Shown here piece by piece: positions 1-28,731 of a DNA stretch of 64,000 bases. The position numbers and the translations under genes were made by a program. Every line of letters begins with the position of its first letter. Position 1 is the stretch's first letter. Source of the stretch: an uncultured Clostridia bacterium (lineage in GTDB: Bacteria; Bacillota; Clostridia; Christensenellales; QALW01); contig CAKRZX010000013.1 of the NCBI GenBank assembly GCA_934434555.1, positions 608 through 64,607 of the forward strand. The letters run 5' to 3'. The notes under the pieces are model-generated. The model made no database searches and was not told where the DNA came from. It was given only the letters and a program-made list of their open reading frames with translations.

Positions 1-944
1 CGATTGTTAATTCCGTTGACGCAAGTGCTTTCGCAAAGGATGTCGTAGTCAATTTGACCGCCACATATACCAAGGACGCCTTTGACGGAGAAGGTATAGT
101 ATTAACACTCAATGCTAACGGCGGCACAATTGACGGCAAGGCAGTTAACAAATACGACTATGTAGGCGGCGGAAACTCCGGAACCGCTATGTCGCTTTTA
201 CCCTATGTTCCCGTAAGAGAGGGGTATACCTTTAACGGCTGGAACACAAAAAGCGACGGCAGCGGTACTATGGAGAAGTATATTTTTTGGAGAATTTGGG
301 ACAATAACGAGGAGACCAATAAGAAATTTGATAAGGATACTTTAGTTAAAGAAGAATCGGGCTACGAGCTGTATAAAAATGTGACCTTGTACGCCTCCTG
401 GACGAAAGCCTCCGGAGAGCCGGAAAATCCCGGTAAGGACACGGTGAAGGAACTCCAAAGCACGGGGGAGACAAAGGCAAAAATCGAATTTGCAACAGAG
501 GTCAGCAAGGATTACAAGCTGGATATCAAGTCCATCGAGGTCAAGAAGGAATTGGCAGATAAGAATGTGAAATTCGTTGCGGACATCAATGTGCTGGACG
601 GAAACAACAATGTTGTGAAGATCAGCAACACCAAAATGAAGATCAGAATTGCTCTGCCGGAAGATTTGAAGGGGTATGACAAATACGAAGTCGTTTACAT
701 TGTAAATGATGAGATTAAAGAGACCTTGCCTGCTGCGGTAGAAAACGGTTATATTGTATTTGAGACAAACCATTTGAGTCAGTACGGAATCGTTGGGACA
801 AACACTGGCAATGGGACAAAAAGCCCGCAAACCGGCGATAACAGCAATATGTTCCTGTGGGTCGCTCTGCTGTTTGCCAGCGGTGGCGTTCTGACCGTGT
901 TGGGTGTTACAGACAAGAGAAAAGAGAAAGGGATCACTAAATAA
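1..944 (+). CDS. Sortase-anchored surface protein, C-terminal part (gene starts upstream of window)
   Basis: The frame is open from base 3, so the listed TTG at 54 is probably not the true start. GYTFNGWNTKSDGSG is a Listeria-Bacteroides (Flg_new) type repeat. The C-terminal SPQTG, hydrophobic helix and KRKEKG tail form an (S/P)PxTG-type sorting signal. Confidence 0.8.
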   Translation, partial: IVNSVDASAFAKDVVVNLTATYTKDAFDGEGIVLTLNANGGTIDGKAVNKYDYVGGGNSGTAMSLLPYVPVREGYTFNGWNTKSDGSGTMEKYIFWRIWDNNEETNKKFDKDTLVKEESGYELYKNVTLYASWTKASGEPENPGKDTVKELQSTGETKAKIEFATEVSKDYKLDIKSIEVKKELADKNVKFVADINVLDGNNNVVKISNTKMKIRIALPEDLKGYDKYEVVYIVNDEIKETLPAAVENGYIVFETNHLSQYGIVGTNTGNGTKSPQTGDNSNMFLWVALLFASGGVLTVLGVTDKRKEKGITK

Positions 945-976
945 CATTGACAAACCCGAAATAGCATTATGATAAG

Positions 977-1011
977 CGGGCAGTGACCGAAAGACTGTCA
1001 CTGCCCGTTTT
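977..1011 (+). terminator. Rho-independent terminator after the surface protein gene
   Basis: An 11-bp stem CGGGCAGTGAC / GTCACTGCCCG is followed by TTTT. Confidence 0.7.
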
Positions 1012-1679
1012 CAAAAAACTCGATGTGAATATATGCTGGAAGTGAACATTTCTCGCTTTCGCAAAAAGCAGTCACGCAAACTGATTGAAAATTGAAAGGT
1101 TAAAGATAAAGGTCGGTGACGGTAAATATGTCTCCTGAAAAAAGAATAGCCGACCGGACGGCAATCTCCGGCACAGTTTCAAGAGCGCTCAGCAAGTAAA
1201 AAACTTGCTGGGCGCTCTTTCTTTATGCCTTCGACAAAAATCAGCCGTTTTCAGCAGCAAAACAAGCGGTTCGGCAAAATATTCCGGCAAGGAGGTGATA
1301 CCGATGTACAGTGCAGTGCTTTCAAAGGACATACCATACGGATCTTTGCCGTAAAGGGCGGCCGCCCTGCCGTCCTTCGGCGACAAGGTGAGAACATGAA
1401 AAAGAACATAGGAAAGATACAGGTGTTGAAATAGCAAAGACTGTCTTTGCGCAGACACACAGACACCTATATTTTTTTGACCTTCCCGGTCGACAAAATT
1501 CAAAACAATATCCGAGAAGCGCCAATAAAAGCACCGAAAAAACGGGAATTTTACTTGGCTTGACTTTTTGCGGCCTTTGCACCCTAAAACAGCGGCAATC
1601 CGGCAGCGTCGGCTGTCGAAGCCCTCCGTATCAATCGTTTTTGCCCTAACAAAAAACGATTGAACGGAGGTACATAACC

Positions 1680-2189
1680 TTGAAAAAACAACCCAAAGCG
1701 GTTTATATCATAGAAAACGGCGGGTACACGGAACTAACCTATGAGGAATTCCGTCGCCGTGAGCAAATCTGCCCGTTATATGCGGACAAGCTGTTCCTGC
1801 CTCTCTACGGCAGGCTTATGGAGGTATCCAAAGAGGATTACACGGAATTCTACCGAGCAAAACGCCGTCAGAAATATCTGGACGAACGCTCTGCGGACAA
1901 CGGCGACTTCTCCTACGATATGCTGACCACCGATGAATTCAGCGGCGAGGACATCCTCATCGCCGAGCAGCCGGATGTATGCGACACCGTAGTGGAAAGC
2001 ATTATGACGGACAAGCTCCACAAGTCCTTGCAATTGTTGAACCAAGACGAGAAACTCTTAATTCAAGCCTTGTATTTTGAAAGAAAATCAGAACGCAAGG
2101 TTTCGGCGGAAACCGGAATACCTCAAAAAACCATTAATGATCGCAAACGGCGGATTATAGCCAAACTCAAAAAACTTTTAGAAAGTTAA
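1680..2189 (+). CDS. Sigma-70 region-4-like HTH protein typical of integrative elements
   Basis: TTG start about 10 nt after GGAGG. The C-terminal LIQALYFERKSERKVSAETGIPQKTINDRKRRIIAKLKKLL resembles a sigma region 4.2 HTH. The gene sits upstream of the recombinase cassette. Confidence 0.6.
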   Translation: MKKQPKAVYIIENGGYTELTYEEFRRREQICPLYADKLFLPLYGRLMEVSKEDYTEFYRAKRRQKYLDERSADNGDFSYDMLTTDEFSGEDILIAEQPDVCDTVVESIMTDKLHKSLQLLNQDEKLLIQALYFERKSERKVSAETGIPQKTINDRKRRIIAKLKKLLES

Positions 2190-2203
2190 AAATAAATCCG
2201 CTC

Positions 2204-2245
2204 AGCCCCCTCATCTTTCGGCATGGAAAGTGAGGGGGCTTTCTC
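2204..2245 (+). terminator. Terminator after the sigma-like gene
   Basis: The stem AGCCCCCTCA / TGAGGGGGCT is followed by a T-rich tract. Confidence 0.6.
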
Positions 2246-2656
2246 AATAGCCTCCGCCCGTTCTTTGAAAACCGAATAGTACAGCGCATCCTTTACCTTC
2301 CTTCTGCCGTCGGCGAAACCGATAAGCCACACGACCTTTTGAGTCGGACGGTGCGGCGCATCCGCACCGAAGGCCATAAAAAGCAGAAGCAATAATGATA
2401 CTTGCGTCCAGTCACAGGCCGAGCGTTGAAGCGGCACGAAAAGCGCCGTGAGCCGTCGCAGCCACTGAGGGCGCCTCGCAGAGATCCTGGGAGGGGTGAG
2501 ATTCCCATGAGGCAAAATGCATTGCCGGAGGATGCGTTCCCTTGTTCGGGGCGTCGTGGACAAATACGGACAGAACCAAGAACGATTGATACAAATACCA
2601 AGGCGGTCGTTTGCCCAAAAGCACACGGCCGCCTTTTACTTAAAACGGAGGCTAAT

Positions 2657-3022
2657 ATGAAAGAGATCAAACGAGGTGAAATCTATGCCGTTGACTTCGG
2701 TACAGGCTTCGGCAGTGAGCAAGGCGGAACGCGCCCGTCCTTGATTTTACAGAATGATATCGGCAACAGGCACAGCCCCACCACCATCGTGGCGGCGATC
2801 ACAGGCAGAAAGACAAAAGCGGCTCTGCCCACCCATGTGAAAATCATGGCGAAAGGGCTTAAAACCGAATCCACCGTCCTGCTCGAACAAATCAGGACGA
2901 TAGACAAAGAGAGGCTCGGCGAATACATCGGCAGGCTCGACGGCAAAAACCTCGCCGCCGTTGACCGTGCCATTGTGGTGAGTCTCGGCATCAAATACCT
3001 GGAGGAACTGCTCAATGGATAA
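2657..3022 (+). CDS. PemK/MazF family endoribonuclease toxin
   Basis: MKEIKRGEIYAVDFGTGFGSEQGGTRPSLILQNDIGN..TTIVAAITG matches the MazF/PemK signature. The ATG at 2657 is preceded by ACGGAGG. The part of the listed ORF upstream of it (from 2402) lacks protein-like character. Confidence 0.85.
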   Translation: MKEIKRGEIYAVDFGTGFGSEQGGTRPSLILQNDIGNRHSPTTIVAAITGRKTKAALPTHVKIMAKGLKTESTVLLEQIRTIDKERLGEYIGRLDGKNLAAVDRAIVVSLGIKYLEELLNG

Positions 3023-3170
3023 AAGAACCGACATCAACAATACATCATTCGCTTACAGTGTAAACCTATTAAAAATGCTCCTCGCTATGCAACTCATCAC
3101 CGAGGATGAATACGAAAGAATCACTCAGATCAGTGCCGAACATTACGGCGCTGATCTGATTTATGTCTGA
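3015..3170 (+). CDS. Small 51-aa ORF translationally coupled to mazF (unknown function)
   Basis: ATG at 3015 overlaps the mazF stop (AATGGATAA). It encodes MDKRTDINNTSFAYSVNLLKMLLAMQLITEDEYERITQISAEHYGADLIYV. It is shorter than the ORF-track cutoff. Confidence 0.4.
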   Translation: MDKRTDINNTSFAYSVNLLKMLLAMQLITEDEYERITQISAEHYGADLIYV

Positions 3171-3289
3171 AATCTTAATTCTCAAGTTTTTGCGAAAAAC
3201 CGCTGGAAGTATTCGAACTATTGTGGTATGGTGTGTCGTGCCGAAAGGCGAATAACAGCAAGGTGACCCCTTGCGGAAAGGAGAAAGAC

Positions 3290-4846
3290 ATGAACATTAC
3301 TGAAATCACAAGCACAAAGAAGCAGACAGCCGAACGGCTTCGGTTAGCCCCGTACTGCCGGGTGTCGAGTGACTCTACCGACCAGCTCCACTCATTCGCC
3401 GCACAGATCCGCTACTACAGCGACTATGCCAAGAAGCATCCCGAATATCAGCTTGTCGACATTTATGCCGATGAGGGCATCACGGGAACCGAGATGAAAA
3501 AGCGGGACGAGCTGAACCGGCTGATAGCCGACTGCAAGAAAGGCAAGGTCGACCGCATCATCGTCAAATCGGTTTCCCGTCTGGCACGGAACACAGAGGA
3601 GCTGCTCGTACTGCTGCGAACGTGCAAAGAGATCGGCGTGAGCGTGTACTTCGAGGAACAGGGCATCGACACCGAAAAACTGAATATGGAAATGATCGTA
3701 ACATTCCCCGGTATGGCCGCACAGCAAGAAAGTGTGAACATATCGGGGAATTTGCGTTGGAGTTATCAAAAGCGAATGCAGTCTGGTAATTTCAACTGCA
3801 CCTGTCCGGCTTACGGCTTCGACCTCAAAGACGGCGAGCTCGTAATCAACGAAACGGAGGCGGCGGTCATACGAAGAATATTCGACCTATACCTCCAAGG
3901 ATACGGAACGCCTGCCATTTCGAAAATACTTAATGAGGACGGTGTACCAAGACGGCACGGCTATGAAAAATGGCTGCCGAGTTCAATCAACTATGTGTTG
4001 AACAATGAACGCTATATGGGAGATGCACTCCTGCAAAAAAGTTATACCACCGAAACCCTGCCGTTTCGGAAAGTGAAAAATGACGGTCGGTTGCCGCAAT
4101 ACTATGTGGAGAACAGCAATCCGCCAATCGTCAGTCGAGAAACCTTTCATGCAGCACAGAACCTGCTGCACTCACGGCAGACAGAAAAATGCAAGCGAAA
4201 GATGTATCCGCTATCGGGAAAGCTACGCTGCCCCGAATGCGGCAGAGCATTCCGCCATCAGGTTGTAAACGGAACAGCCCAGTGGATCTGCACCTGCCGA
4301 TCATCGGGTGCGACCGACTGTCAGCACCGCCATGTGCGAGAGGAAGCTGTATATGAAATCTTTACCGATATGGTTATCAAGCTGAAAACTTACCGAAACG
4401 AACTGCTTGGTACGCTGATTCTCCAAATGGAACTCATGCAGGACCGTACAAGTCGAAATCAGGAACGCATACGGCAGGTAGACAAGGAGATCGCCGACCT
4501 CGGTGCAAAGAATCATATCATTGCACGGTTGCATACAAGCGGTGCATTAACCGCTGTCGAGTATGCCATGCAGACTTCGGAAATCGGCAACCGCCTCACC
4601 GAGCTACGCATAGAACGGCGACAAAAGCTCACTGAGGATGAGGATGACCAACGGCTCGCCGCCATCAAAGACTTAAACGGCATACTCGAAGAATATGAGC
4701 CGACCGCCAAGTTTGACAACGGGCTGTTTGACGAAATTATTGAGAGCATCACGGTGGACAGCAGCGAACAGCTCACATTCAAGCTCCTCGGTGGTATTGC
4801 ACTGACCGAGAAAATTCCAAAGAAAGGACGGTGCAAAACGGCATGA
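3290..4846 (+). CDS. Large serine recombinase
   Basis: ATG at 3290 follows GGAGAAAG. The N-terminal resolvase domain is present (YCRVSSDSTDQ catalytic Ser context, SVSRLARN), followed by a recombinase domain and a Cys-rich zinc ribbon (CPECGRAF..CTC). Confidence 0.9.
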   Translation: MNITEITSTKKQTAERLRLAPYCRVSSDSTDQLHSFAAQIRYYSDYAKKHPEYQLVDIYADEGITGTEMKKRDELNRLIADCKKGKVDRIIVKSVSRLARNTEELLVLLRTCKEIGVSVYFEEQGIDTEKLNMEMIVTFPGMAAQQESVNISGNLRWSYQKRMQSGNFNCTCPAYGFDLKDGELVINETEAAVIRRIFDLYLQGYGTPAISKILNEDGVPRRHGYEKWLPSSINYVLNNERYMGDALLQKSYTTETLPFRKVKNDGRLPQYYVENSNPPIVSRETFHAAQNLLHSRQTEKCKRKMYPLSGKLRCPECGRAFRHQVVNGTAQWICTCRSSGATDCQHRHVREEAVYEIFTDMVIKLKTYRNELLGTLILQMELMQDRTSRNQERIRQVDKEIADLGAKNHIIARLHTSGALTAVEYAMQTSEIGNRLTELRIERRQKLTEDEDDQRLAAIKDLNGILEEYEPTAKFDNGLFDEIIESITVDSSEQLTFKLLGGIALTEKIPKKGRCKTA

Positions 4847-5838
4847 GCAACAGAACACTGCCTTACGGATACTGCTATAAAAACGGCATAATTGCAATAG
4901 ACTCAAAAGAAAGCAAGGTGCTGAAACGAATATTCTCCGCATACCTTAACGGCGATTCGATGTTAACCATTGCCGAGCAGTTAAACAGAGAAAAAATCGA
5001 ATACGCAAGCGGCGTTATCGGTTGGAACAAAGGGCGGCTCAAGCACCTCATTGATAACCCACGGTATCTTGGCACAGAGGTATATCCGCAGATTATCGAG
5101 CAAGCGACTTATGAGAAAATACAAAAGGCAAAGCACAGTCGCAACACCCAAAAGGATACGGATAAGGCACAAGAGATATTCAGGCTGACCGTTCCCGTCC
5201 GATGCCCGATCTGCGGAAGCCTAATGCGACGCAGACATGACAGCAGATGCAAATGCCAAGAGCGTTGGACTTGTGAAAACAAAGAGTGCCGTTTGCGGAT
5301 TGAGATATCCGACGCTGAATTGCTGACCGCACTCTCTGATCTTCTCTCCACGGTAACAGCCGACAGCATCTCACTGCCTGCCGAAAAGCCCTATGAGCCA
5401 AGCACCGAGGCAATACGGTTGAACAACGAAATCAGCCGAATGCTTGATGCCGCAGAAATAGATAAGGCTATCCTACGAAACAAAATGGCAGAGTGCATTA
5501 GTCAAAAATACAGCGAACTCGGCAATGAGTGCTGTACGGCACACAAACTAAAAGCCGAACTCGGCAGCTTGTCCGATGTCACCGAAAGGCTGAATCGCAC
5601 GGTCAGCGAAATACGCCTACACCCCGACAAAACAGCAGACCTCATACTGCTGAACGGTCAGATTATACGAAAGGAGAAAATCCATGCAACAGACAGCGGT
5701 CGCTCCACAGAGGGTGGTGCGGGTAATCGAACCGACCATATCGGTCAGGGAGAGCATCAAAAACCATTATCGAGTCTTGCGTGTTGCAGCATACTGCCGA
5801 GTTTCCACGAAGCAAGAGGAACAACTCAACAGTTATGA
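4843..5838 (+). CDS. Recombinase-domain plus zinc-ribbon protein lacking the catalytic resolvase domain
   Basis: ATGA start/stop overlap with the upstream gene. LPYGY..IAEQLN..W....L..NPRYLG is the recombinase-domain signature, followed by CPICG..C..C zinc ribbon. There is no S-R catalytic N-terminus. The last 155 nt overlap the next gene out of frame. Confidence 0.7.
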   Translation: MSNRTLPYGYCYKNGIIAIDSKESKVLKRIFSAYLNGDSMLTIAEQLNREKIEYASGVIGWNKGRLKHLIDNPRYLGTEVYPQIIEQATYEKIQKAKHSRNTQKDTDKAQEIFRLTVPVRCPICGSLMRRRHDSRCKCQERWTCENKECRLRIEISDAELLTALSDLLSTVTADSISLPAEKPYEPSTEAIRLNNEISRMLDAAEIDKAILRNKMAECISQKYSELGNECCTAHKLKAELGSLSDVTERLNRTVSEIRLHPDKTADLILLNGQIIRKEKIHATDSGRSTEGGAGNRTDHIGQGEHQKPLSSLACCSILPSFHEARGTTQQL

Positions 5839-7321
5839 GAATCAGGTGGAACACTACACCGAGCGCATCAATTCGGAAAACGGATGGACGCTTGAAGGCA
5901 TCTACGCCGACAAGGGTATCTCCGGCACAAGCGTAAAAAACCGTGATGAATTCAATCGGATGATACGCCGATGCAAGCAAGGAAAAATCGACATGATCAT
6001 CACGAAATCCATTGCAAGGTTTGCGAGAAACACGGTGGACTGCTTGAAATATGTCCGGCTGCTCAACGACCTTGGTGTGGATGTCTACTTCGAGGAACAG
6101 GGAATCCACAGCAATCAGCCCGGCGCCGAGTTTTACATCACCATCTACGGCAGCATTGCCCAAAGCGAATCGGAAAACATCAGTGCCAATATCAAATGGG
6201 GCAAGGCTCAAAGTGCTAAGGAAGGTAAGGTTATATTCCAATATAAGAACTTCCTCGGCTACCGCAAGGGCGAGGACGGACAGCCCGAAATCGTCCCCGA
6301 AGAAGCCGAAACAATTTGCCTTATATATGACCGCTTTCTCGCAGGCGACAGCTTAAAAGGAATTGCAGAGCTGCTTGAAGAAAAGGGCATCAAAAGCCCG
6401 ACGGGAAAAGCTCAATGGCAGTTTTCAACGATACAGTCCATTCTCTCCAATGAAAAGTATAAGGGCGATGCCATTATCAATAAGACCTACATTACCGACT
6501 GCATCAGCAAAAAGGTTAGAGTAAATAACGGCGAACGTCCGAAATACTATGTAGAGAATAGTCACCCTGCCATTATCGACTCAGCCACCTTCGGCAGAGT
6601 CCAAGAGGAACTCGCAAGGCGTTCAGGTAAGCGCAAGGTCAGACAAAAAGCCAAAACCGAGCAAGGCAAATATTCAAGCAAATACGCTATGACAGAACTG
6701 CTCGTCTGCGGCGAATGCAAAACACCATACCGCCGATGCACTTGGACGGCAGGCGGCAAAAAGAAAATCGTATGGCGATGTATAAATCGTCTTGACTACG
6801 GCAAGAAATACTGCCACAACTCGCCGACCATAGAAGAAAGCATATTGCAAAAGGTTGTTATGACGGCAATCATGGAAACCGCCAATCAAAACACCGAGGT
6901 ACTGCGAACATTGAAACTGCATATCGGTATGGGATTAGAGGGAGAAAAGAGCAATGACAACAGCCTCGACCTGCAAGTGCGGATTGCCGAAATTGACGCA
7001 GAGTTCAGAAAAATGATTGATCGAGTATCCACAGAAACAGTGGAAGCCTTTGACGAGGAAACCGCAACTCGGCTCATGAACGAAAAAAGCCGTCTGCAAC
7101 AGCAGCTCGACAACATAGCCAACGCTGAGCAACGGCGAGAAAACGCAAAATCCCGACTCGATGATATCTATACTATACTGGACGGCATAAAAAACCGTCC
7201 GATGGAATACGATGACCAAATTGTCCGCCAACTGCTCGAATGCATAGTGGTCGACTCAAAAGAGCAGGTCACCGTAATATTCAAAGGCGGTCTCAAATCG
7301 GTGCAGCCGCTGACCGAATGA
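5684..7321 (+). CDS. Large serine recombinase
   Basis: Strong RBS AAGGAGAAAA precedes the ATG. Motifs: YCRVSTKQEEQ, ITKSIARFARNT, recombinase domain, zinc ribbon CGECKTPY..WRC, and a coiled-coil C-terminus. Confidence 0.9.
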   Translation: MQQTAVAPQRVVRVIEPTISVRESIKNHYRVLRVAAYCRVSTKQEEQLNSYENQVEHYTERINSENGWTLEGIYADKGISGTSVKNRDEFNRMIRRCKQGKIDMIITKSIARFARNTVDCLKYVRLLNDLGVDVYFEEQGIHSNQPGAEFYITIYGSIAQSESENISANIKWGKAQSAKEGKVIFQYKNFLGYRKGEDGQPEIVPEEAETICLIYDRFLAGDSLKGIAELLEEKGIKSPTGKAQWQFSTIQSILSNEKYKGDAIINKTYITDCISKKVRVNNGERPKYYVENSHPAIIDSATFGRVQEELARRSGKRKVRQKAKTEQGKYSSKYAMTELLVCGECKTPYRRCTWTAGGKKKIVWRCINRLDYGKKYCHNSPTIEESILQKVVMTAIMETANQNTEVLRTLKLHIGMGLEGEKSNDNSLDLQVRIAEIDAEFRKMIDRVSTETVEAFDEETATRLMNEKSRLQQQLDNIANAEQRRENAKSRLDDIYTILDGIKNRPMEYDDQIVRQLLECIVVDSKEQVTVIFKGGLKSVQPLTE

Positions 7322-7426
7322 CAGCGGCTCACCTCCGCCCTTAACCTTGAAAGTTCAAGATTTTTTGTAAGGGTACAAATACCAACCTAAAAAGGCTAAA
7401 AAATCTTTTTTATAGTCCTCCCACAG

Positions 7427-7470
7427 AACGGCTCGTTCGCTTTTGAGAACGAGCCGTTTTGTTATTTTTG
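7427..7470 (+). terminator. Terminator after the recombinase cassette
   Basis: A 12-bp stem AACGGCTCGTTC / GAACGAGCCGTT is followed by TTGTTATTTTT. Confidence 0.75.
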
Positions 7471-7824
7471 CAGATTTTATCACCGCGGGCAACATAAACT
7501 CTTGTTCTGCGCAGTCATAAAGAGAATAAACGGCGAAAAGTCTGTCCGAAAATGAAAAAACGGGCGGATTTTTCGTTGTTTTTGCAACTAATCAAGGAAT
7601 GAAACATTTTATAATGTAAAATCAAAGCAAAAAGAGAATCTATCTCTTTTGGATACAAACCGAACTGTATTTTGAAGATAACCACGCTTATTTATATAAT
7701 GATTACTGTAATATTAAAACAGAATTCTGTCTTAATCACATCAATGAATTTGCATTTTTAATTAAAATATGCCTTAAAAAACAAAAAAAGAACAGAAAAA
7801 ACTATCTGTTCACGATTTTATTAC

Positions 7825-7853
7825 TTGAAATTTAGTAAAAATTGGTGTAAAAT
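7825..7853 (+). promoter_or_regulatory. Candidate sigma-A promoter reading toward the 19-bp repeats and the integrase gene
   Basis: TTGAAA, a 17-nt spacer, then TG-extended TAAAAT. Confidence 0.4.
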
Positions 7854-7889
7854 ACATATACAAACAAAAAGATACAATCAGAACAGAAC

Positions 7890-7908
7890 TTTCGCAGAGT
7901 TCGTCACT
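7890..7908 (+). repeat. 19-bp repeat copy A (TTTCGCAGAGTTCGTCACT)
   Basis: Exact 19-mer, also present at 7993-8011 and inverted at 9423-9441. Confidence 0.9.
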
Positions 7909-7992
7909 AAGCGGATTGCACTGCAAGAGATCTGTTTTGTTTTTTTGTGTCAAAGCCTGTCGAAATCCGTCAAAACTCCGTAAATCAGGGCT

Positions 7993-8011
7993 TTTCGCAG
8001 AGTTCGTCACT
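7993..8011 (+). repeat. 19-bp repeat copy B
   Basis: Exact copy. Identity with inverted copy C extends to 20 bp. Confidence 0.9.
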
Positions 8012-8232
8012 CAACGAAAACGCAACATCTCTTACAAATCAATCCAATTATATCACAGCACTTTCAAAAAGGCAACCAAAATTTAGAAAAAAACAGAAAA
8101 TTTTTTCGTGAATCGGATTTGTGTATGTTGAAAGGGGGTGTTTTACAGCGATTTAAGGCGGCGGAATGTATCTGTGCAGTCAAATGCGCAGTCATGATAC
8201 ATATTTTCTTTTTGAAAAAAGGAGGATTTAAG

Positions 8233-9339
8233 ATGTCAAAAGGAGAGAACATTTTCAAAAGAAAAGACGGGCGTTGGGAAGCCAGGTATACCAAAGGATA
8301 TGAAATTTCGGGTAAGATAAAATACGGTTATTGCTACGGTAAAACTTATAAAGAGGCAAAGGACAAGGTTACAAAAATTAAGGCGGCGATAATAAACGGC
8401 ACGCCGACGGAGAATTCGCGGCGCAGATTTTCCTATTACTGCGACCTGTGGCTAAAAGACAGAAAAATATCGGTGCGGGAAGCGACTTACGTTAAGTATT
8501 CAGCGGTGGTAAAAAAGCATATTCTGCCGCGGCTCGGCGGCTGTTTCACCGCGGGAATCAACGAACCGGTGATAAACGCGTTTACCGACGAACTTCTTGA
8601 AACCGGACTTAAAGCAAAAACCGTACACGATATTCTTGTTATCCTTAACGGAATAATCCGCTTTGCGTCGGTTTCGTTTGCGGGCGTTTTTCCTCAGGTG
8701 AAAATTACGTATCCCAAAGAGAAGAAAAAGGAAATGCGCGTGCTTACGCGGGAAGAACAGGAAAGGTTTGTTGCGTACCTTTCCAAGGACGGGGACCCCT
8801 GTAAGTTCGGGGTGCTGCTTGCGCTTTACACGGGAATCCGCATAGGCGAACTGTGCGCGCTGAAATGGTCGGATATTTCACAAAAGGACGGCACGCTGTG
8901 CGTAAATTCCACTATGCAGCGCCTGTACGATACAAGCGAAAATTCCGGGAGCAAAACGCGCGTTGTTATGGGCGACCCGAAAAGCGACACGTCCGCAAGG
9001 GTGATACCCCTTACGGGACAGGCTGTATCTATGTGCGAAAAGATGAATCCCGGCGACGGCGACGCATTTGTTTTAACGGGGACGCATTTTTATATGGAGC
9101 CGCGTCTTTTGCAGTACAGAATAGAAAAATACACGCGGGATTGCGGGCTTGACGGCGTGCATTGCCACACGCTCCGCCACACATTTGCCACCCGCGCGGT
9201 GGAAGTGGGCTTTGAAATTAAATCGCTTTCGGAAGTTTTGGGGCACGCAAACACAACCATTACCCTTGAACGGTATGTGCATTCGTCAATGGAATTTAAA
9301 AGGAACAATATGAGTAAACTTGCCGCCGCGGGATTTTAA
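8233..9339 (+). CDS. Tyrosine recombinase/integrase with N-terminal AP2-like arm-binding domain
   Basis: ATG at 8233 follows AAAGGAGG. The N-terminal RKDGRWEARY motif is present. C-terminal catalytic motifs: TGIRIGELCALKW, HTLRHTFATR, LGHANTTITLERYVH. Confidence 0.9.
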   Translation: MSKGENIFKRKDGRWEARYTKGYEISGKIKYGYCYGKTYKEAKDKVTKIKAAIINGTPTENSRRRFSYYCDLWLKDRKISVREATYVKYSAVVKKHILPRLGGCFTAGINEPVINAFTDELLETGLKAKTVHDILVILNGIIRFASVSFAGVFPQVKITYPKEKKKEMRVLTREEQERFVAYLSKDGDPCKFGVLLALYTGIRIGELCALKWSDISQKDGTLCVNSTMQRLYDTSENSGSKTRVVMGDPKSDTSARVIPLTGQAVSMCEKMNPGDGDAFVLTGTHFYMEPRLLQYRIEKYTRDCGLDGVHCHTLRHTFATRAVEVGFEIKSLSEVLGHANTTITLERYVHSSMEFKRNNMSKLAAAGF

Positions 9340-9374
9340 CCGGCGCAGTCAAATTTTTCAGTCAAACGCAAAAC

Positions 9375-9408
9375 GGGTTGAAAGTTACCGCACTTTCAGC
9401 CCTTTTTT
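9375..9408 (+). terminator. Terminator after the integrase gene, located inside the repeat-bracketed segment
   Basis: The stem GGGTTGAAAGT / ACTTTCAGCCC is followed by TTTTTT. Confidence 0.75.
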
Positions 9409-9422
9409 ATGGGTTTTTATTT

Positions 9423-9441
9423 AGTGACGAACTCTGCGAAA
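9423..9441 (-). repeat. 19-bp repeat copy C (inverted)
   Basis: AGTGACGAACTCTGCGAAA is the exact reverse complement of copies A and B. Confidence 0.9.
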
Positions 9442-9585
9442 AAAGCAGACCGTGCTTTTTGGCAGTCGCCCGAGGGTAAAATGCGGGGGATGGCATTTTG
9501 CCGTCTGCGGGTAGTGAGTACTACCCAAAGAAGCGGGCACAGTTTAACCGAGAATGGGGGAATCGGTACGGAACAGAAAGAAACA

Positions 9586-10173
9586 ATGAAGCGCAATCTT
9601 ATGGAAAGTGCTGTCCGCGTTGTGGCAAGGGAGGGGCTTGAAAAAACAACAACCCGACTTATATCCCTTGAAGCCAAACTCAACGAGGCGTATCTTTACA
9701 GGTGCTTTGAGAATAAGGAACACTTGCTTGCGGAAACTTTTTATAACGAAGATATCCGCTTTGCGCACCATATTCAAAAAACGCTGCCTGTAATGCAGAT
9801 GTCGGGACTTACGTGGGAAGAAAAATGTTTTCTTCTGTGGAATTCCTGCTGGAATTTCATCATAAAACAGCCCGATGACTGCCGATTTTATATTCGCTAC
9901 TATTATTCCGCGAATTTCAGGAAGTATGCGTATGAGCGGCATATAAACTTTTTTAAGCCGCTTATCGAAAAAATTTCGTTTGCATTCAGGCGCGGCGTCA
10001 ATGTGGATATGCTTGTGCACCAGATCTTCGACACAATGCTTTCCTTTGCCGAGCGCGTTTTAAGCGGCGAAGTTGCGGACACGGAAGAAACAACCAAGAC
10101 GATGTTCAAACAGATTTTCGGTTTTGTGTCCATAAATGCCGTGCCGGAACTTATCTCCGGGGAGGCGCAGTGA
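9586..10173 (+). CDS. TetR/AcrR family transcriptional regulator
   Basis: The N-terminal HTH (AVRVVAREGLEKTTTRLISLEAKLNEAYLYRCFENKEHLL) is followed by a helical C-terminal domain. The listed ORF start at 9409 runs through repeat C and is unlikely; ATG 9586 or 9601 is more plausible. Confidence 0.75.
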   Translation: MKRNLMESAVRVVAREGLEKTTTRLISLEAKLNEAYLYRCFENKEHLLAETFYNEDIRFAHHIQKTLPVMQMSGLTWEEKCFLLWNSCWNFIIKQPDDCRFYIRYYYSANFRKYAYERHINFFKPLIEKISFAFRRGVNVDMLVHQIFDTMLSFAERVLSGEVADTEETTKTMFKQIFGFVSINAVPELISGEAQ

Positions 10174-10721
10174 TGCTTAAAAAAGTTTGGAATATCGTAA
10201 GCACGGTACTTGTTATAATCGTGGTAATACTTGCAGTCGCTCTTGTGGGCGTAAGGCTTGTGGGAATAAAAACCTATTCGGTTATGTCCGGTTCAATGGA
10301 GCCCGTATATCATACCGGTTCGCTTTTGTACGTTAAAAGCGTTGACCCGAAAGAACTGAAAACGGGCGATTCAATAACGTTTATGCTTGACGAAGACACC
10401 GTTGTAACCCACAGGATTATCGAAATCATACCCGATGACGAGGACGCGAACGTTATAAGATTTCTGACAAAGGGCGATGCCAACGACGCGCCCGACGGCG
10501 TTCCCGTTCACTGCAAAAACGTAATAGGAAAACCCGTGTTTTCCGTGCCGTATTTAGGCTATTTTGCGCATTTTGTGCAAAATCCGCCGGGGCTGTACCT
10601 TGCAATAGGCGCCGCGGCAATATTAGTGGTTCTTGTCTTTTTGCCCGACTTTTTTAAGGACGAAAAGAAAGAAATAAATCAAGGGCAAAAACAGCCCGAT
10701 AAATTCAAGGAGGATTTATGA
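10170..10721 (+). CDS. sipW: Signal peptidase I, SipW (archaeal/ER S26B) type
   Basis: N-terminal TM helix, then SGSMEP (catalytic Ser), VVTHRI (His), TKGDAN, and a C-terminal TM helix. The start (GTG 10170 or ATG 10173) overlaps the tetR stop, and the stop overlaps the next start. Confidence 0.9.
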   Translation: MMLKKVWNIVSTVLVIIVVILAVALVGVRLVGIKTYSVMSGSMEPVYHTGSLLYVKSVDPKELKTGDSITFMLDEDTVVTHRIIEIIPDDEDANVIRFLTKGDANDAPDGVPVHCKNVIGKPVFSVPYLGYFAHFVQNPPGLYLAIGAAAILVVLVFLPDFFKDEKKEINQGQKQPDKFKEDL

Positions 10722-11314
10722 AAACAAAAACAAAGGCACTTACACTGGCACTGTGCGCGATGTTACTTGTTGCTGCGTCCGTACTTACAACTCTGGCGTT
10801 CTTAACAAGTCACGACGAAGTAAAAAATACTTTTACCGTCGGCAAAGTTGCAATTACGCTTGACGAGGCAGAGGTTGATGAGTACGGAAAAGTGGTTTCC
10901 AACCAAGACCGCGTAAAGAAAAATGAGTACAAACTTATTCCGGGTCACAAATACGTAAAAGACCCCACCGTTCACTTTGCCGCGGGCAGCGAAGCAAGTT
11001 ACCTGTTTGTAGAAGTTAAAAACGGCATTGAAGCAATTGAAACGAACGAATCCGGCAAGACAATCGATGACCAGATAACCGGTAACGGTTGGACAGCGCT
11101 TGATGGTGAATCCGGCGTTTACTGGCAAAAGGTTGACGCAAATACAGGTGCAAAGGCAGAAGATTATAAAGTTTTCGGCACATTCACACTTGCCGATGAT
11201 GCCGCGGTAGAAAACTATAAAGACGCAAACATCACAATTACCGCATACGCAATTCAGGCAGACGGCTTTGACACTCCCGCAGCGGCGTGGGACGAAGCAA
11301 AAACAGCGAAATAA
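10718..11314 (+). CDS. TasA/camelysin-like secreted protein with SipW-type signal peptide (paralogue 1)
   Basis: The N-terminus ..LLVAASVLTTLAFLTSHDEVKNTFTVGKVAITLDE carries the SipW-cognate signal. It also has the PGHKYVKDP motif and the C-terminal AYAIQADGF motif. ATGA overlap with sipW. Confidence 0.85.
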   Translation: MKTKTKALTLALCAMLLVAASVLTTLAFLTSHDEVKNTFTVGKVAITLDEAEVDEYGKVVSNQDRVKKNEYKLIPGHKYVKDPTVHFAAGSEASYLFVEVKNGIEAIETNESGKTIDDQITGNGWTALDGESGVYWQKVDANTGAKAEDYKVFGTFTLADDAAVENYKDANITITAYAIQADGFDTPAAAWDEAKTAK

Positions 11315-11366
11315 GGCGAAAACCTTGTTTATATACCCAAATATATAAAGAAAGGAGGCAAAGCCG

Positions 11367-11924
11367 ATGAAAAAGAAAATATGGATATCGGTTGCGGCAA
11401 TCGCACTTATCCTTTGCTGTGCCATAGGCGGTACTCTTGCTTGGCTTAAAACAAGCACAACCCCAGTTACAAACACCTTTACTGTCGGAGATATCAACAT
11501 AGAACTTAAAGAAACCACCACCGACTACAAAATGGTGCCGGGCAACAAGATTGACAAAGACCCTAAGGTTACGGTTAAAGAGGGCTCCGAGGCGTGCTGG
11601 CTGTTCGTTAAGGTTGGTGAATCCGCAAACTTAACGGATTTTATCGAGTATAAGGTTAATACAGCCGAGGGCGAATGGAAATTGGTTCCGGGCGAAACTC
11701 ACGTTTACTACCGTGAAGTAGATGCCGATACCGCCAAAGTAGGCAAAACCTATTCAATCCTTACGGACAACAAGGTAAAAGTTTTTGATACCGTTACCAA
11801 AGCAGACCTTAACGGATTGAATGAAGCAACCTATCCCACACTTATCTTTACCGCTTATGCCGTGCAGAAAGAGCACTTTGATACAGCAGCCGCTGCATGG
11901 GAACAAGCACAGAATAAAAACTAA
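11367..11924 (+). CDS. TasA/camelysin-like protein with SipW-type signal (paralogue 2)
   Basis: GGTLAWLKTSTTPVTNTFTVGDINIELKE, PGNKIDKDP and AYAVQKEHF are present. RBS AAAGGAGG. Confidence 0.85.
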   Translation: MKKKIWISVAAIALILCCAIGGTLAWLKTSTTPVTNTFTVGDINIELKETTTDYKMVPGNKIDKDPKVTVKEGSEACWLFVKVGESANLTDFIEYKVNTAEGEWKLVPGETHVYYREVDADTAKVGKTYSILTDNKVKVFDTVTKADLNGLNEATYPTLIFTAYAVQKEHFDTAAAAWEQAQNKN

Positions 11925-11951
11925 AATTTATTTGAAAGGACTTTTAAGACA

Positions 11952-12707
11952 ATGACTAAGAAAAAAATAGTTACCATCTGCCTTGCGGCAATCCTTGTTG
12001 TTATGGCAGTAGCAGGCGCGTCGCTTGCATATCTTACCGATACCAAGGACGCAACAAACACCTTTACGGTTGGTAATGTTAAAATCGAACTCCTTGAATC
12101 AAGTTTGCACCGCGAAAATGCGGGCGTTGCCAACGGCACAACAAGCGATTCGGAACTTTGGTCCGATGTAGCAAAAGAGGGCACAGGCAACGAAAACAAG
12201 TATAAAGCCGGCGACACTTTCTATACCGATGCTCAGATTGAAGCAGACGCGGCAGAATACGAGTGCGACAACGTAAAACTTCTTCCCGGGCAGTCCTATC
12301 ACAAAATGCCCTACGTAAAGAACACCGGTTCGGAAGACGCATATATCCGTATCCGTGTAATGTTCCCCGCAAACCTTGATACAGCAATACTCAACAGCAG
12401 TATGTATACCACTACCGCTATAAAGAGCGGCGAGTTCACATTTGCCTACGATGACAGTGCATCGGTTGAAAGAGACGGCGTAAAATACAATGTTTATACA
12501 TTCACCCGTAACGAGGCTCTTAACCCCGGCGAATTGACCTACTGGAATGTATGGGGCACAGTTCATATGGACGCAGATGTTACAAATGAAGAACTTGCTG
12601 ACCTGTTCAAGGACAGCAAAAACTACAAAGTTCTTGTTGAGGCTGACGCTATTCAGGCAGAGGGCTTTGCAGATGTAACCGAGGCATTCAAGGCCTTTGA
12701 TAAATAA
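11952..12707 (+). CDS. TasA/camelysin-like protein with SipW-type signal (paralogue 3)
   Basis: AGASLAYLTDTKDATNTFTVGNVKIELLE, PGQSYHKMP and ADAIQAEGF are present. Confidence 0.85.
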   Translation: MTKKKIVTICLAAILVVMAVAGASLAYLTDTKDATNTFTVGNVKIELLESSLHRENAGVANGTTSDSELWSDVAKEGTGNENKYKAGDTFYTDAQIEADAAEYECDNVKLLPGQSYHKMPYVKNTGSEDAYIRIRVMFPANLDTAILNSSMYTTTAIKSGEFTFAYDDSASVERDGVKYNVYTFTRNEALNPGELTYWNVWGTVHMDADVTNEELADLFKDSKNYKVLVEADAIQAEGFADVTEAFKAFDK

Positions 12708-12726
12708 TATTTTGAGGTGATTTGTT

Positions 12727-13395
12727 ATGACCAAAAAGAAAGTAATAACTCTTGCGCTTGTGGTTATCATCGCCGTTGCGGCAATAACAAGTGCATCACT
12801 TGCGTATTTTACCGACACCAAAACCGCTAAAAACACCTTTACAATGGGTGACGTTAAGATTACACTTGACGAGGCGGCAGTTGACGATAACGGTCACGCC
12901 ATTGACGGCGACCGCGTTAAAGAAAACAATTACGGCATCGACGCCGCTTTCCCCGGCGCAGTGCTTGATAAAGACCCCACTGTTCACAACAACGGCAAGA
13001 ATTCAGCCTATATCCGCGCTACGGTTAATGTAAGCGACTGGATGAATCTTGTAGCCGCATATTATCCTGACTTTAAGGAAACTTTCCCCAATGACGGTTA
13101 CAAGGCCGCCCTCAATCTTCTTGTGGGCGAACTTGGCGATGGCTGGTCGGTTGTTGAAGTAGTTGCGGGCGATGTATTTACCATCGGTCAGTTTGACGCA
13201 AAATTCGTGCTTAAATATGACGGTGTTCTTGCTCCCGGTGAGAGCACAACGCCCATGTTTGAACACATCACTATTCCTACCGGCATTGATAATGCCAATG
13301 CGTCAAGTTTTGACGAGGTAAAGATTGTTGCACAGGCTATCCAGGCAAACAGTTTTGATTCCTGGGAAGCGGCTTTTGCGGCATATGATGCGTAA
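12727..13395 (+). CDS. TasA/camelysin-like protein with SipW-type signal (paralogue 4)
   Basis: TSASLAYFTDTKTAKNTFTMGDVKITLDE, PGAVLDKDP and AQAIQANSF are present. Confidence 0.85.
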   Translation: MTKKKVITLALVVIIAVAAITSASLAYFTDTKTAKNTFTMGDVKITLDEAAVDDNGHAIDGDRVKENNYGIDAAFPGAVLDKDPTVHNNGKNSAYIRATVNVSDWMNLVAAYYPDFKETFPNDGYKAALNLLVGELGDGWSVVEVVAGDVFTIGQFDAKFVLKYDGVLAPGESTTPMFEHITIPTGIDNANASSFDEVKIVAQAIQANSFDSWEAAFAAYDA

Positions 13396-13420
13396 TTGAA
13401 TCCCTATTTCTGATTGACTT

Positions 13421-13486
13421 GCACCCGTTTTATCGGGTGCAGGTCATAGGGAAACACCTGAACTGCACAGGTGTTCCCCTATGACC
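13421..13486 (+). promoter_or_regulatory. Two adjacent hairpins inside the operon (possible attenuator or processing site)
   Basis: The first hairpin is GCACCCG-N6-CGGGTGC. It is immediately followed by a 19-bp stem GGTCATAGGGAAACACCTG / CAGGTGTTCCCCTATGACC with one mismatch. No T-run follows. Confidence 0.5.
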
Positions 13487-13527
13487 CCCCACATACTTAA
13501 TTTATTACTGCGAAAGGAGAGTGGGTT

Positions 13528-14103
13528 ATGAAACTTTGTTGGAAACAGAAAGCGGTTGTTCTCTCGGCGGTTGCGATTATCGGCGTAACGGCGGCGGCAG
13601 GCACCGCGGCGTATTTTACGGCTGAAAGCAAGGCGACAAACGTAATTACGGCGGGCAGCATCAAAATCGAATTACAGGAAAAAATGCTTTTACCCGACGG
13701 CGAAAAAACGGTGCCCTTTGAGGACAGAATAAACGTTATGCCCGGGGAAGAAGTATCAAAGATAGTACAGATAAAAAATACCGGCGGACAGGACGCGTGG
13801 ATTCGCGTTGACGTCAAAAAAACAATAGAACTTGCAAACGGTGAATTCACCGACGGCGACGGTTTGACGTTCACACTGAATTCCGATTTCTGGACCGAAA
13901 AGAACGGTTTTTATTATTATAACAAAAATCTTGCTCCGGGGCAAGAGACAGAACCGCTTTTTTCGTCGGTTTTGTTCGATAAAAATATGGGAAATGACTT
14001 TCAGAACTCAAAAGCGGTAATAACTGTTACGGCTTACGCCGCGCAGACCGCCCACAACGGCACATCGGCGCTTGACGCCCCGCTCTGGCCTCAGGCTGAT
14101 TAA
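13528..14103 (+). CDS. TasA/camelysin-like protein with divergent SipW-type signal (paralogue 5)
   Basis: AAGTAAYFTAESKATNVITAGSIKIELQE, NVMPGEEVSKIVQIKNTG and TAYAAQTAH are present. RBS GAAAGGAG. Confidence 0.8.
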   Translation: MKLCWKQKAVVLSAVAIIGVTAAAGTAAYFTAESKATNVITAGSIKIELQEKMLLPDGEKTVPFEDRINVMPGEEVSKIVQIKNTGGQDAWIRVDVKKTIELANGEFTDGDGLTFTLNSDFWTEKNGFYYYNKNLAPGQETEPLFSSVLFDKNMGNDFQNSKAVITVTAYAAQTAHNGTSALDAPLWPQAD

Positions 14104-14108
14104 GGAGG

Positions 14109-17100
14109 TTGACTATGATTAAATCACATTCCGGCTTTGTTAAAGCCGTTGCACTGCTTCTGTGCGCGGCGGTAATTATTACGTCTTTCTGCCTCGGAAA
14201 CATCGGGCTCGTGGCAGAAGCGGAGGGAGAAACCGTTACAATAACGGTCAATTATGTATACGAATCAAATAATGCAATGGTGGCACAGCCGTATCGTGCG
14301 CAGATTGCAAAGAATACGGAATTCGTTAAAAGTATTGAAGTGCCGAAATTGCTGAATTATTCGATACCGAGTGATTTGGCAGAGGGACTTAGTGAAAACG
14401 TTACGCTTAATCAGGACGCAGATACAAAAAAGTATACGCTGGCATTTAACATCAATTCTGCTGAAAGCGATATTACGGTTACCCTCTACTATGTGGCGGG
14501 AACGGCAAAGTATACGGTGTATCACTATTATCAGAACCTTGAAAATGATAAGTATGATGATGAAGAACCGAAGATTATTGAACTTGTAGGAGATATTGAT
14601 GCATACACAGAGGCTGTTGCAAACAACAAGCCCGGCTACCACTGCAAAGGTATTCCTCAAACAACAGTTGCGGCGGACGGCACAACTACGGTTGAAATCT
14701 ACTATGACCGCGATTATTATACGGTTATATTTGATGTAAACGGCGGTATAAATGGCCCCGAGCCCATATACGCAAGATACGGAACACAGTTTCAGGCAAA
14801 AGATATAATTGAGCCGACGCGTAAGGGATATACATTCCTTGGGTGGACGCCTGTTTTGTCAGATACGGTTACCATTGAAGACAATACAACATATGTCGCA
14901 CAGTGGCAGCCCGAAAAGGGTCAGGCAGACTACAGTATTGTTATTTGGGGACAGAACGCTAACGATGACGAGTACTCATATCTTGGTTCCAGCGATGCTT
15001 GGGGCAATGTGGGCAAAGATATTACTTGGAATGAAAGTACGCTTATAAGCCACGTGCATGCCGATGAGTGCCGGAAACTTACGTGCGACAAAGAGGAGCA
15101 TACACATGATGCAAAGTGTTATACGTGCAGCCATGTACACGGCTTGACTTGCTACGGTTTAAATGCAAACAGTACGAGTACTAACCCAAATGATAATACT
15201 GCATGGTGGAATAGCAGTAAACCCGAAACCTATTTCGAGGCATTGGGAATTGAAGACGGATATCTTTATTATGACGATGAGAATGCGGCAGTTCTTTCAA
15301 AAGATAACTACTATTTTAGATTCAACGGAAAATACTATTCTATTGATGAATCTCTTTTCAATAAATTAAAAGGAGATGAAGTCGGCAAAACCGATGATGG
15401 AACTTCACGATACACTGACTATTACTATAAGTACAGTATAAATCAAGCAGGTATGTCCTGTACCCATACACATACTGATGATTGTTATTCATGCGGCAAA
15501 GCGGAACACACTCACGATTCTTCTTGCTTTAAACTTGTATGCGGGTTAAAAGATACACCTAAACAGTATATGAAAGATATCAAACCGTCCGATAGTTTAT
15601 GGAAGTTTGAAAGAAGCGATACTGTAACGGTTAATGCTGATGGTACATCAGTGTTAAATGTGTACTTCAAAAGAAAAGAGTTCACACTTGAATTCCGTAA
15701 GCAGTATTCTAACAGCAATGACTACGGCACAATTAAAGCGCGATGGGGTAAGAACATAGATTCAGAATACAAAGCGGTTGTTGAAAGAGCCGGAGGAGAT
15801 AATTTTTGGAGTAAAAATAAGGATGCAAGCAATCCATGGACAAACTACATCGGTGTGATGCCACAGGAGAATATCACCTATTATAACTATGTGCCCAATG
15901 GTAGTGGTAAGAGCACAATGACTTATTATGGCCAAGATTTGAACGATAGTTATCAGATAATATTTTCAGTCACGTTCAAAGGAACGAACTTAACAGTTAC
16001 TGATGAAGACCGTTATCAGTTTGAGGGATTCATTTACGACCATGGAACAAATAATGGGGCAAATTGTGACGGAGCAGAATTCTACTACAACCGCAAACTT
16101 TATAAACTGGAATTCTATTCAGTATCAGCCAGCGTGCTTGATAAATCCAAAGATGTGAAGTATCAGGATTCATTGAGTCAATATGATTACATACCGACAA
16201 ATAAGCCTGAAACGGTTGAAAAAGATGCTGTGTTTGCGGGGTGGTATCAGAACCCGCAATGCACAGGCGAAAGATACGACCTTGCAAGCCATATAATGCC
16301 GTCAAACAACATATCGCTTTATGCAAAATGGGTAAACGGATTGTATACGGTAACTACCTATACCGATGAAACTATGAAAGAACTTTATACATATGACGGT
16401 TACAGCGGAATTCAGAGAGATATAGAAAAATATACTCTTGCAAGCGAGCCTACGGCACCCAAAAAGGACGGCTATGTTTTTGTGGGCTGGTTCTATAAAG
16501 ACGGAGATGCGGAAAAACTTTTCTCGTTTACAATGACGATAACAAGAGATTATGACCTGTATCCCAAGTTTTCAGAGCCAACATATCTTAACTATACTGT
16601 TCATTACTATATTAAGAACACAACAACGAAAGTTGCCGAAGACAAAGAAAGTACGGCACTGGTAGGAACAACGGTTACCGAAAAGGCGAAAATGGGTTCA
16701 GAATTAAATCTTGTTTTGCCAGATATGCGGAGCAAGTATTTCCCGGATAAAACAAGCACAAGCGTAAAAATAGACAAAGAGGGTATAGAAATTATTTTCT
16801 ATTACAAAGAGGCAACAAAGGTTAAATACACAGTTTATTATCAGGATGAAAACGGAAACGACTTGCACGAGCCGAAATACGAGGAAACAGACCTTTCGGT
16901 TGTGACGGAGGAGTATATTCACATTGATAATTATTCGCCGATTCAGTATCAAATTGAACTGGCTTTGTCAACCGATGAAGAATCAAACATAATTATATTT
17001 GTTTATAAACCTATGTTTTCCACCCTCACAATCCAAAAATCCGGCAGTGAGGATATAGACGAAAATCAGACGTTTATCTTCCGCGTTAAGGGTAAGGATA

Positions 17101-17351: not shown

Positions 17352-17363
17352 GGAGGCGGCAAA

Positions 17364-17918
17364 ATGAAAAACAGAAAAATTACGGCATTGATTATTTCGC
17401 TGCTTCTTGTGCTTGTGCTGGGCGCGGGCGCGACACTTGCTTATATTCTCACTAAGACGGACGCAAAGCAGAATACTTTTACTCCGGCGGTCGTTTCGTG
17501 CGAGATTACCGAAACGTTTAACGGCAGCACAAAATCGAACGTAAAAATCAAAAACACGGGAAACACGGGAGCGTATATCCGCGCAAAAATCGTTGTTTCC
17601 TGGGCAAAGGATAATGCGGACGACGAACAAACCGTTTCGGCGGTTGTTCCGAAGGAAAAAGTTGATTATGTGATTGCGATTGACGAGGAAAAATGGATTA
17701 AGGGCAGTGACGGGTATTACTATTTTAAGAATCCCGTTGCCATGAACGGAGAAACCGACGCGCTTATTTCTTCCTGTGCGCTTGCCGAAAACGCAAAAGT
17801 GCCCGAGGGATATCACCTTTCAGTTGAAATAATTGCTTCGGCGTTGCAGAGCACACCCGCAGATGCCGTAAGAGACACTTGGGGCGTGACAATCGCAGAC
17901 GAAATTTCAAAGGGGTGA
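17364..17918 (+). CDS. TasA/camelysin-like protein with SipW-type signal (paralogue 6)
   Basis: AGATLAYILTKTDAKQNTFTPAVVSCEITE and KIKNTGNTGAYIRAKIV are present. Confidence 0.8.
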   Translation: MKNRKITALIISLLLVLVLGAGATLAYILTKTDAKQNTFTPAVVSCEITETFNGSTKSNVKIKNTGNTGAYIRAKIVVSWAKDNADDEQTVSAVVPKEKVDYVIAIDEEKWIKGSDGYYYFKNPVAMNGETDALISSCALAENAKVPEGYHLSVEIIASALQSTPADAVRDTWGVTIADEISKG

Positions 17919-17923
17919 AGATA

Positions 17924-28648: not shown

Positions 28649-28724
28649 TGGTGGGTCATCGGGGGTTCGAACCCCGGACACCCTGATTAAGAGTCAGGTG
28701 CTCTGCCAGCTGAGCTAATAACCC
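28649..28724 (-). tRNA. tRNA-Lys (anticodon CTT), CCA encoded
   Basis: The reverse complement folds as a cloverleaf: GGGTTAT acceptor stem, anticodon loop CTCTTAA, T-arm CGGGG-TTCGAAC-CCCCG. Its 3' 45 nt form attR. Confidence 0.9.
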
Positions 28725-28731
28725 AAAAAAA

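Follow-up and report, generated by a model that had tools for sequence, protein, structure and literature searches.

What is a tyrosine recombinase gene doing between exact repeats directly in front of an operon for surface fibres? The question is raised by a locus on contig CAKRZX010000013.1 of an uncultured Clostridia bacterium (assembly GCA_934434555.1), of which we analysed a stretch of 64,000 nucleotides, hereafter called the window. A first-pass annotation, made from the letters of this stretch, had pointed out the gene, here termed int, and had suggested that it lies within an invertible segment which acts on the adjoining fibre operon. Our analysis upholds this central idea, as homologues with the same sites are found in both orientations, and arrives at a different mechanism. 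The segment is probably a self-contained invertible promoter cassette that serves as a phase-variation switch for the operon of tetR, sipW and TasA/BsaA-like fibre genes. The outside promoter and turned terminator that the annotation had invoked are not the best-supported parts of such a switch; the conserved element is an outward promoter inside the segment.

The sites on which this reading is built are three copies of a 19-mer. TTTCGCAGAGTTCGTCACT occurs exactly at 7890-7908 and 7993-8011 on the plus strand and at 9423-9441 on the minus strand, and these exact positions bear out the two direct copies and one inverted copy described earlier. Three matches with at most three mismatches are present in the window, against 0.02 expected from shuffled sequences, and in the whole 2.18-Mb assembly these three are the only copies, even when up to two mismatches are allowed. 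Because no further copy exists in the assembly, the 19-mer is not a dispersed repeat; the possibility of a genome-wide dispersed repeat unrelated to the recombinase, which the annotation had raised against its own proposal, is rejected, with only three copies in this genome. The segment ends in the window are exact inverted 19-21-mers, and the span from site B to site C is 1449 bp. tetR begins with its ATG at 9586, in agreement with the distance of about 145 bp beyond copy C that had been given for it. The cassette and the operon behind it are composed as follows, in window coordinates:

7890-7908, plus strand: core site A, the outermost, third copy, with outer arm TTTCGCAGAG, spacer TTCGTCA and a weak inner arm
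7909-7992, no strand: x segment, which separates site A from site B; loci keep its length but not its sequence
7993-8011, plus strand: core site B, left edge of the putative 1449-bp invertible segment
8075 to 8047, minus strand: candidate outward promoter (Pout), TTGCCT-17-TG-n-TATAAT, predicted to fire leftward over site B, away from the operon
8174-8197, plus strand: tandem arm-type candidate motifs, GCAGTCAAA at 8177 and GCAGTCA 12 bp on at 8189, 44-56 nt before the int ATG
8233-9339, plus strand: int, a 368-amino-acid tyrosine recombinase of three domains (arm-binding-like N-terminal, core-binding, catalytic)
9344-9368, plus strand: second tandem pair of arm-type candidates, GCGCAGTCAAATTTTTCAGTCAAAC, at 9346 and 9359, right after the int stop; position kept across loci
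9375-9408, plus strand: predicted intrinsic terminator inside the segment, hairpin at 9375-9402 with a folding free energy (dG) of -16.4 kcal/mol and a z-score (z) of -3.45
9423-9441, minus strand: core site C, right edge of the segment, inverted relative to sites A and B
9586-18562, plus strand: operon predicted to be controlled, with tetR, sipW, SipW-dependent TasA/BsaA-like subunits, a 1080-amino-acid Flg_new adhesin and further subunits

The stretch between B and C had been described as holding only int and its terminator. Both are present; the segment also contains the outward promoter candidate and the two pairs of tandem motifs.

That cassettes of this kind invert is seen in homologous loci. 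The loci of Brotocaccenecus cirricatena (L021) and of a rumen metagenome-assembled genome (L022) have collinear flanks that are 92-94% identical, and the int segment between them (3750-5227) is 98.3% identical yet inverted. The alignments of the two orientations overlap exactly on the repeats, and the junctions are the expected recombinants, in which the outer arm has stayed with the flank and the inner arm with the segment. A search of gut metagenomes yielded 80 contigs of the sister clade represented by L021 and L022, whose recombinase is 61-63% identical to that of the window. Of these, 77 could be scored for the flank on the tetR side; Pout points away from tetR in 53 of them and toward it in 24, with the breakpoints in the repeats. 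The contigs are assembly consensuses from different samples, and their numbers are not within-population ratios. Both states were found in both sequence subgroups of this clade (34:16 and 19:8, away to toward). Among fibre/tetR loci of different species, Pout faces the operon in L010 and L029 and points away from it in the window, L005, L009, L027 and L030. Taken together, these sequence comparisons show that the cassette family flips in nature. In the sister clade, the genes behind tetR encode a priming sugar transferase (Bac_transf) and GT4 glycosyltransferases of a polysaccharide operon (L021). As the cargo is made up of polysaccharide genes in L021 and of fibre genes in the window, the same module of cassette and tetR fronts different surface operons.

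The anatomy of the sites was derived from a set of 18 loci, namely the window and 17 others, collected through homologous recombinase genes from relatives and from 17 species-representative genomes. Inverted sites bracket the recombinase gene in 18 of 18 loci, about 230-280 bp before its ATG and about 80-100 bp after its stop. Read in one orientation, the site consensus of the 18 loci is TTTCGCAGAGT-N5-ACTCTGCG, that is, two inverted arms round a short asymmetric centre, and this arrangement corresponds to the core-site anatomy of tyrosine recombinases. The outer arm, on the flank side, is strongly conserved and the inner arm, on the segment side, is weaker; the crossover spacer measures 5-7 nt. 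Within each of the 18 loci the 5-nt centre is the same in all sites, and between loci it takes 14 different sequences. Such covariation is expected of functional recombination sites, because partner sites must share the crossover region. The 17 other loci have the layout of the window in common with it: inverted end sites, an outward extended -10 promoter, tandem GCAGTCAAA motifs on both sides of the gene and, often, a terminator.

Three non-coding features of the segment are conserved as well. In the non-coding alignment, most loci keep an aligned TTGCAn-17-TGnTATAAT block on the strand opposite to that of int. This putative promoter, Pout, is the top promoter candidate in 8 of 18 loci, with its -10 end 51-55 bp from the outer site edge, and it is directed outward over the site at the 5' side of int. 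The tandem motifs form a family with the consensus GC[A/C]GTCA(AA) and hold fixed positions across loci, and we regard them as candidate arm-type sites; in 13 of 16 loci that were checked, the upstream pair could be made out with its 12-bp spacing. A hairpin equivalent to the predicted terminator is seen in L011, L020-L023 and L028. We found no strong plus-strand promoter for int inside the segment and no plus-strand promoter-like site between site C and tetR (9442-9585), and Rfam gave no match over 7000-10000.

By Pfam, int comprises Phage_integrase and SAM_3 domains and no Resolvase domain, and it is the sole recombinase of its type in the genome. Its catalytic residues R203, K250, H312, R315, H338 and Y348 are invariant across 16 homologues. 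In the AlphaFold2 (AF2) model, with a predicted local distance difference test score (pLDDT) of 84, an N-terminal unit of three strands and a helix precedes the core-binding and catalytic domains. The best Foldseek hit is Tn1549 Int (E 1.5e-14), followed by full-length lambda Int (E 1.8e-13), and the sequence search agrees on the type. No arm-binding domain family in Pfam matches the N-terminus at E values up to 10; the arm-binding-like nature of this domain is suggested by its AF2 fold only. int fits the three-domain architecture of the lambda/Tn916/Tn1549 type with R-K-H-R-H-Y catalytic residues. Against the NCBIfam models for tyrosine-type DNA invertases it scores 20.1 bits (NF007371, cut-off 222) and 18.5 bits (NF007370, cut-off 221), which places it, as judged by these profiles, outside the FimB/FimE-type family.

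We propose that int, as a recombinase of the lambda/Tn916 type, would bind the inverted core sites, each made up of the outer arm TTTCGCAGAG, the identical spacer TTCGTCA and a weaker inner arm, and that its N-terminal arm-binding domain, seated on the tandem GCAGTCAAA motifs near both segment ends, probably aids this binding. Strand exchange would then invert 1449 bp (B x C) or 1552 bp (A x C). As the core sites of the window are inverted, the sole product would be inversion, apart from the 103-bp excision of x. In the present orientation, predicted to be OFF, Pout would fire leftward into non-coding DNA, toward a further element on that side:

7790-7811, minus strand: terminator-like hairpin, dG -9.0, z -3.95, followed by the T-run UUUUUUUGUUUUUU; about 80 bp beyond site A

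Read from 7811 to 7790 on the minus strand, this hairpin could stop Pout transcripts in the present orientation, and the terminator at 9375-9402 would block read-through from int into the operon. We read the window as OFF because Pout points away, the terminator faces the operon and no promoter-like site lies between site C and tetR. In the inverted state, predicted to be ON after either flip (B x C or A x C), Pout would come to lie about 55 bp from site C and would transcribe over this site into tetR-sipW, with a leader of about 200 nt.

Site A adds a further layer to this layout. The direct doublet of sites, 103 bp apart from start to start in the window, also occurs in L005, L010, L011 and L030, at 100-103 bp, and L009 has a decayed copy of the third site at about the same distance. 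The x segment enclosed by the doublet holds three GTC[A/G]AA motifs in a phase of about 10 bp (at 7948, 7958 and 7968) that resemble the arm-type candidates. Folded in both directions, x of the window contains no terminator and no significant structure; for this reason the idea that x gates transcription was dropped. With three sites, four interconvertible arrangements are predicted, two OFF and two ON. The window would represent S1, written A> x B> [Pout<- int-> T] <C with T for the terminator. A flip of B x C would turn S1 into S2, and a flip of A x C would turn it into S3 and move x to the operon side; S4 would arise from S3 by a further flip, in which site A recombines with site B in its new place. 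Three of the four predicted arrangements are seen across species, S1 in the window, S3 in L010 and S4 in L005 and L030. The recombinase tree joins L010 and L030 as sisters (95/97 support) and has three-site loci in three separate places. This layout fits a four-state model as far as a comparison across species goes. A spacing of 100-103 bp that is held in at least three lineages, in spite of the unconserved sequence of x, is what suggests a function for the third site. We put forward only tentatively, and with more doubt than assent, that the locus is a three-site, four-state switch in which the third site is an alternative crossover partner, or else acts in an accessory or decoy role and tips the switch toward OFF. 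Recombination of the direct pair A-B would delete x and could explain the many two-site loci. Within species, Pout points away in 15 of 15 contigs of three-site loci (10/10 in L124-L133, 5/5 in L036-L040), compared with 53:24 in two-site relatives; this one-state pattern may reflect bias, a lock or sampling.

The same pattern heads the observations that weigh against a working switch in the window. Five of five same-species contigs examined (16 are on record) are in the state of the window; of the two orientations for which the first-pass annotation had proposed to look in metagenomes, both are seen for homologous cassettes and one for the window's own species, in these five contigs. Among the places inspected, exact look-ups of the int protein, of the 230-amino-acid TetR and of the L005 int protein gave contigs in one state only, and the L030 int protein had no record. 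All 10 contigs of the L005 species, the closest three-site relative, share a single Pout-away state (S4), as against 53:24 in the two-site clade. The predicted inverted junction (CGNNN, site C and right flank) had 0 matches in metagenome contigs, a weak negative result, as the species of the window may be excluded from that collection. The inner arms of the window sites are degenerate (ACTAAGCG, ACTCAACG and ACTAAATA versus the consensus ACTCTGCG), the roles of promoter and terminator are assigned from consensus matches and conservation, and the assignment of ON and OFF follows from geometry. The single state of both species and the degenerate inner arms would suit a locked or fossil switch, a member of the family that no longer or very rarely flips here, with Pout frozen away and the operon silent or otherwise driven. 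We consider such a relic unlikely. The int gene has remained intact and encodes every catalytic residue, the three sites match one another at 100% over their 19 nt, the fast-evolving spacer included, and a nucleotide divergence of about 65% from L005 has left Pout, the arm motifs and the terminator conserved; moreover, the window (S1) and L005 (S4) are at least two flips apart, and assemblies show the majority state only. A mostly-OFF population is usual for phase-variable adhesins, as in fim-type switches. From the anatomy, the conservation and the inversion of homologues we infer that the copy in the window flips as well, that its promoter fires and that its arm-type candidates are bound, and, with greater reserve, that its third site has a role.

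Two other explanations concern what the repeats and the surrounding signals are for. The first-pass annotation had placed the decisive promoter outside the segment, where the following element lies:

7825-7853, plus strand: sigma-A-like promoter match, TTGAAA-17-TAAAAT, 10/12, outside site A and pointing in; function uncertain

On that account, inversion turns int and the terminator relative to this promoter, gates the read-through and makes int expression dependent on orientation. The match exists, it scores 10/12 and points into the segment, and the lack of a strong plus-strand int promoter within the segment would be explained. Matches of such quality, however, are about as frequent in this AT-rich stretch as chance predicts (4 found, 3.5 +/- 1.7 by chance). 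The flanks are wholly different between loci, whereas the inside outward promoter is conserved; in the two-site clade either flank can be upstream of int, and the hairpin at 9375-9402, when reversed, is still followed by a partial T-run, as read from the sequence. We regard a decisive outside promoter as improbable. Still more remote is the other alternative of the annotation, in which the fibre operon belongs to a genomic island or integrative element, int is the integrase of that element and the repeats are its att or arm sites. It would agree with the lambda/Tn916/Tn1549 type of int and its arm-binding-like domain, and with the mobile elements that adjoin the cassette: in the window an element with serine-recombinase genes, whose end lies near 7418, and in L021 genes resembling those of integrative and conjugative elements (ICEs). 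The 19-mers, however, have core-site and not arm-type anatomy, are inverted and bracket int alone, and the arm-type candidates are other motifs, the GCAGTCAAA pairs. Neither a fourth copy nor a partner in direct repeat exists anywhere in the genome, the flanks keep their places when the segment inverts, and the same cassette stands before unrelated cargo, the fibre operon here and the polysaccharide operon in L021. L038, which lacks the serine-recombinase element, has kept the cassette. With inverted sites round int only, no genomic partner and fixed flanks, the reading as attL of an island is rejected.

The proposed invertible promoter cassette combines features that are known from separate systems. 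Like the Salmonella H segment with Hin and hix, and like the phage systems Gin, Cin and Pin, it holds the recombinase gene and an outward promoter inside the segment, is bounded by short inverted sites and would turn a surface operon ON or OFF. Hin, in contrast, belongs to the serine invertases and depends on an enhancer bound by Fis, a protein that is not expected in Clostridia. int is a tyrosine recombinase with the three domains of the lambda/Tn1549 type and is accompanied by candidate arm-type sites; in the window, the promoter reads divergently from int, and a third site is present. With E. coli fimS (FimB/FimE) and Proteus MrpI the cassette would share a tyrosine recombinase that inverts the promoter of an adhesive fibre operon, with ON and OFF set by the orientation. 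FimB and FimE, however, have about 200 amino acids and no arm-binding domain and are encoded outside their 314-bp element, whereas int lies inside the segment. The fold of int, its catalytic residues, the N-terminal unit of three strands and a helix and the tandem repeats placed like arm-type sites have counterparts in the Tn916, Tn1549 and lambda integrases; these integrate and excise via directly oriented att sites, whereas here the core sites are inverted around int alone, and the flanks do not differ from one orientation to the other.

Two published cases come closest. A putative fimbrial invertible segment of Providencia stuartii that encloses a recombinase open reading frame has 844 bp and 14-bp imperfect inverted repeats (Sekulovic et al. 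2018, PMC5903667). Compared by description only, it resembles the cassette of the window in lying beside a fimbrial locus and in enclosing its recombinase, and differs from it in being gammaproteobacterial and in having been reported as an inversion signature (PMC5903667). In Clostridia, short invertons with an adjacent tyrosine recombinase have been described as inverton group 139 with invertase group 35 (PMC11892184). These and the RecV switches of C. difficile are, like the cassette, clostridial phase-variable promoters that are served by tyrosine recombinases and lie near surface or signalling genes; unlike it, they measure about 200-300 bp with the recombinase gene outside, and RecV acts at several distant sites, whereas a single dedicated int is contained in the 1.45 kb here. 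The literature that we searched contains no description of this cassette family, the Providencia case and the short Clostridia invertons being nearest to it. Switches with the recombinase inside are known (Hin); what sets the cassette of the window apart is its conserved third site.

The cassette family is widespread in gut Clostridia, where it stands before fibre and polysaccharide operons, and as recombinase, promoter, terminator and sites are kept together it forms a compact, portable unit. Surface phase variation shapes adhesion, phage evasion and immune evasion of gut bacteria; it is well mapped in Bacteroides and C. difficile and has been charted far less in uncultured Clostridia, abundant as these are. 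With its 1.45 kb, the cassette may escape inverton finders that are set for short segments, such as PhaseFinder with its defaults. The locus would offer a testable route to heterogeneity of TasA/BsaA-type fibres and an instance of a lambda-type integrase, with candidate arm sites, that has been turned into an invertase; if the third site is indeed functional, it would in addition provide a multi-state design. A compact switch part for synthetic biology in Gram-positive bacteria is a potential use.

One more element lies between the cassette and the operon:

9509-9526, no strand: palindrome GGGTAGTGAGTACTACCC (GGGTAGT-GAGT-ACTACCC), perfect, about 60 nt before tetR

L010, L030 and L021 have its TAGT-N4-ACT core in the corresponding position. 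The palindrome may be a candidate TetR operator and, speculatively, a second layer of control.

The remaining observations concern the neighbourhood. Positions 1-7418 of the window are occupied by a mobile element with three genes of the serine-recombinase family, MazF and a sigma-r4 protein, whose right end lies near 7418. The middle one of the three serine-recombinase-family genes has a Recombinase domain only and is without the resolvase catalytic domain. The last 120-130 bp of the element are 97-98% identical in genomes of two other genera. In L038, a same-species contig from a Hadza gut sample, the cassette is kept and the mobile element is absent (an empty site), with gtrA as the left neighbour. 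On its other side, the cassette of L021 adjoins ICE-like genes, which encode a TraG/VirD4 coupling protein, a DUF3991-Toprim protein and helix-turn-helix (HTH) proteins; these genes and the polysaccharide operon lie in L021:1-3512 and L021:5346-9083. Farther along in the window, tRNA-Lys(CTT) and tRNA-Gly(GCC) are encoded on the minus strand at 28649-28807.

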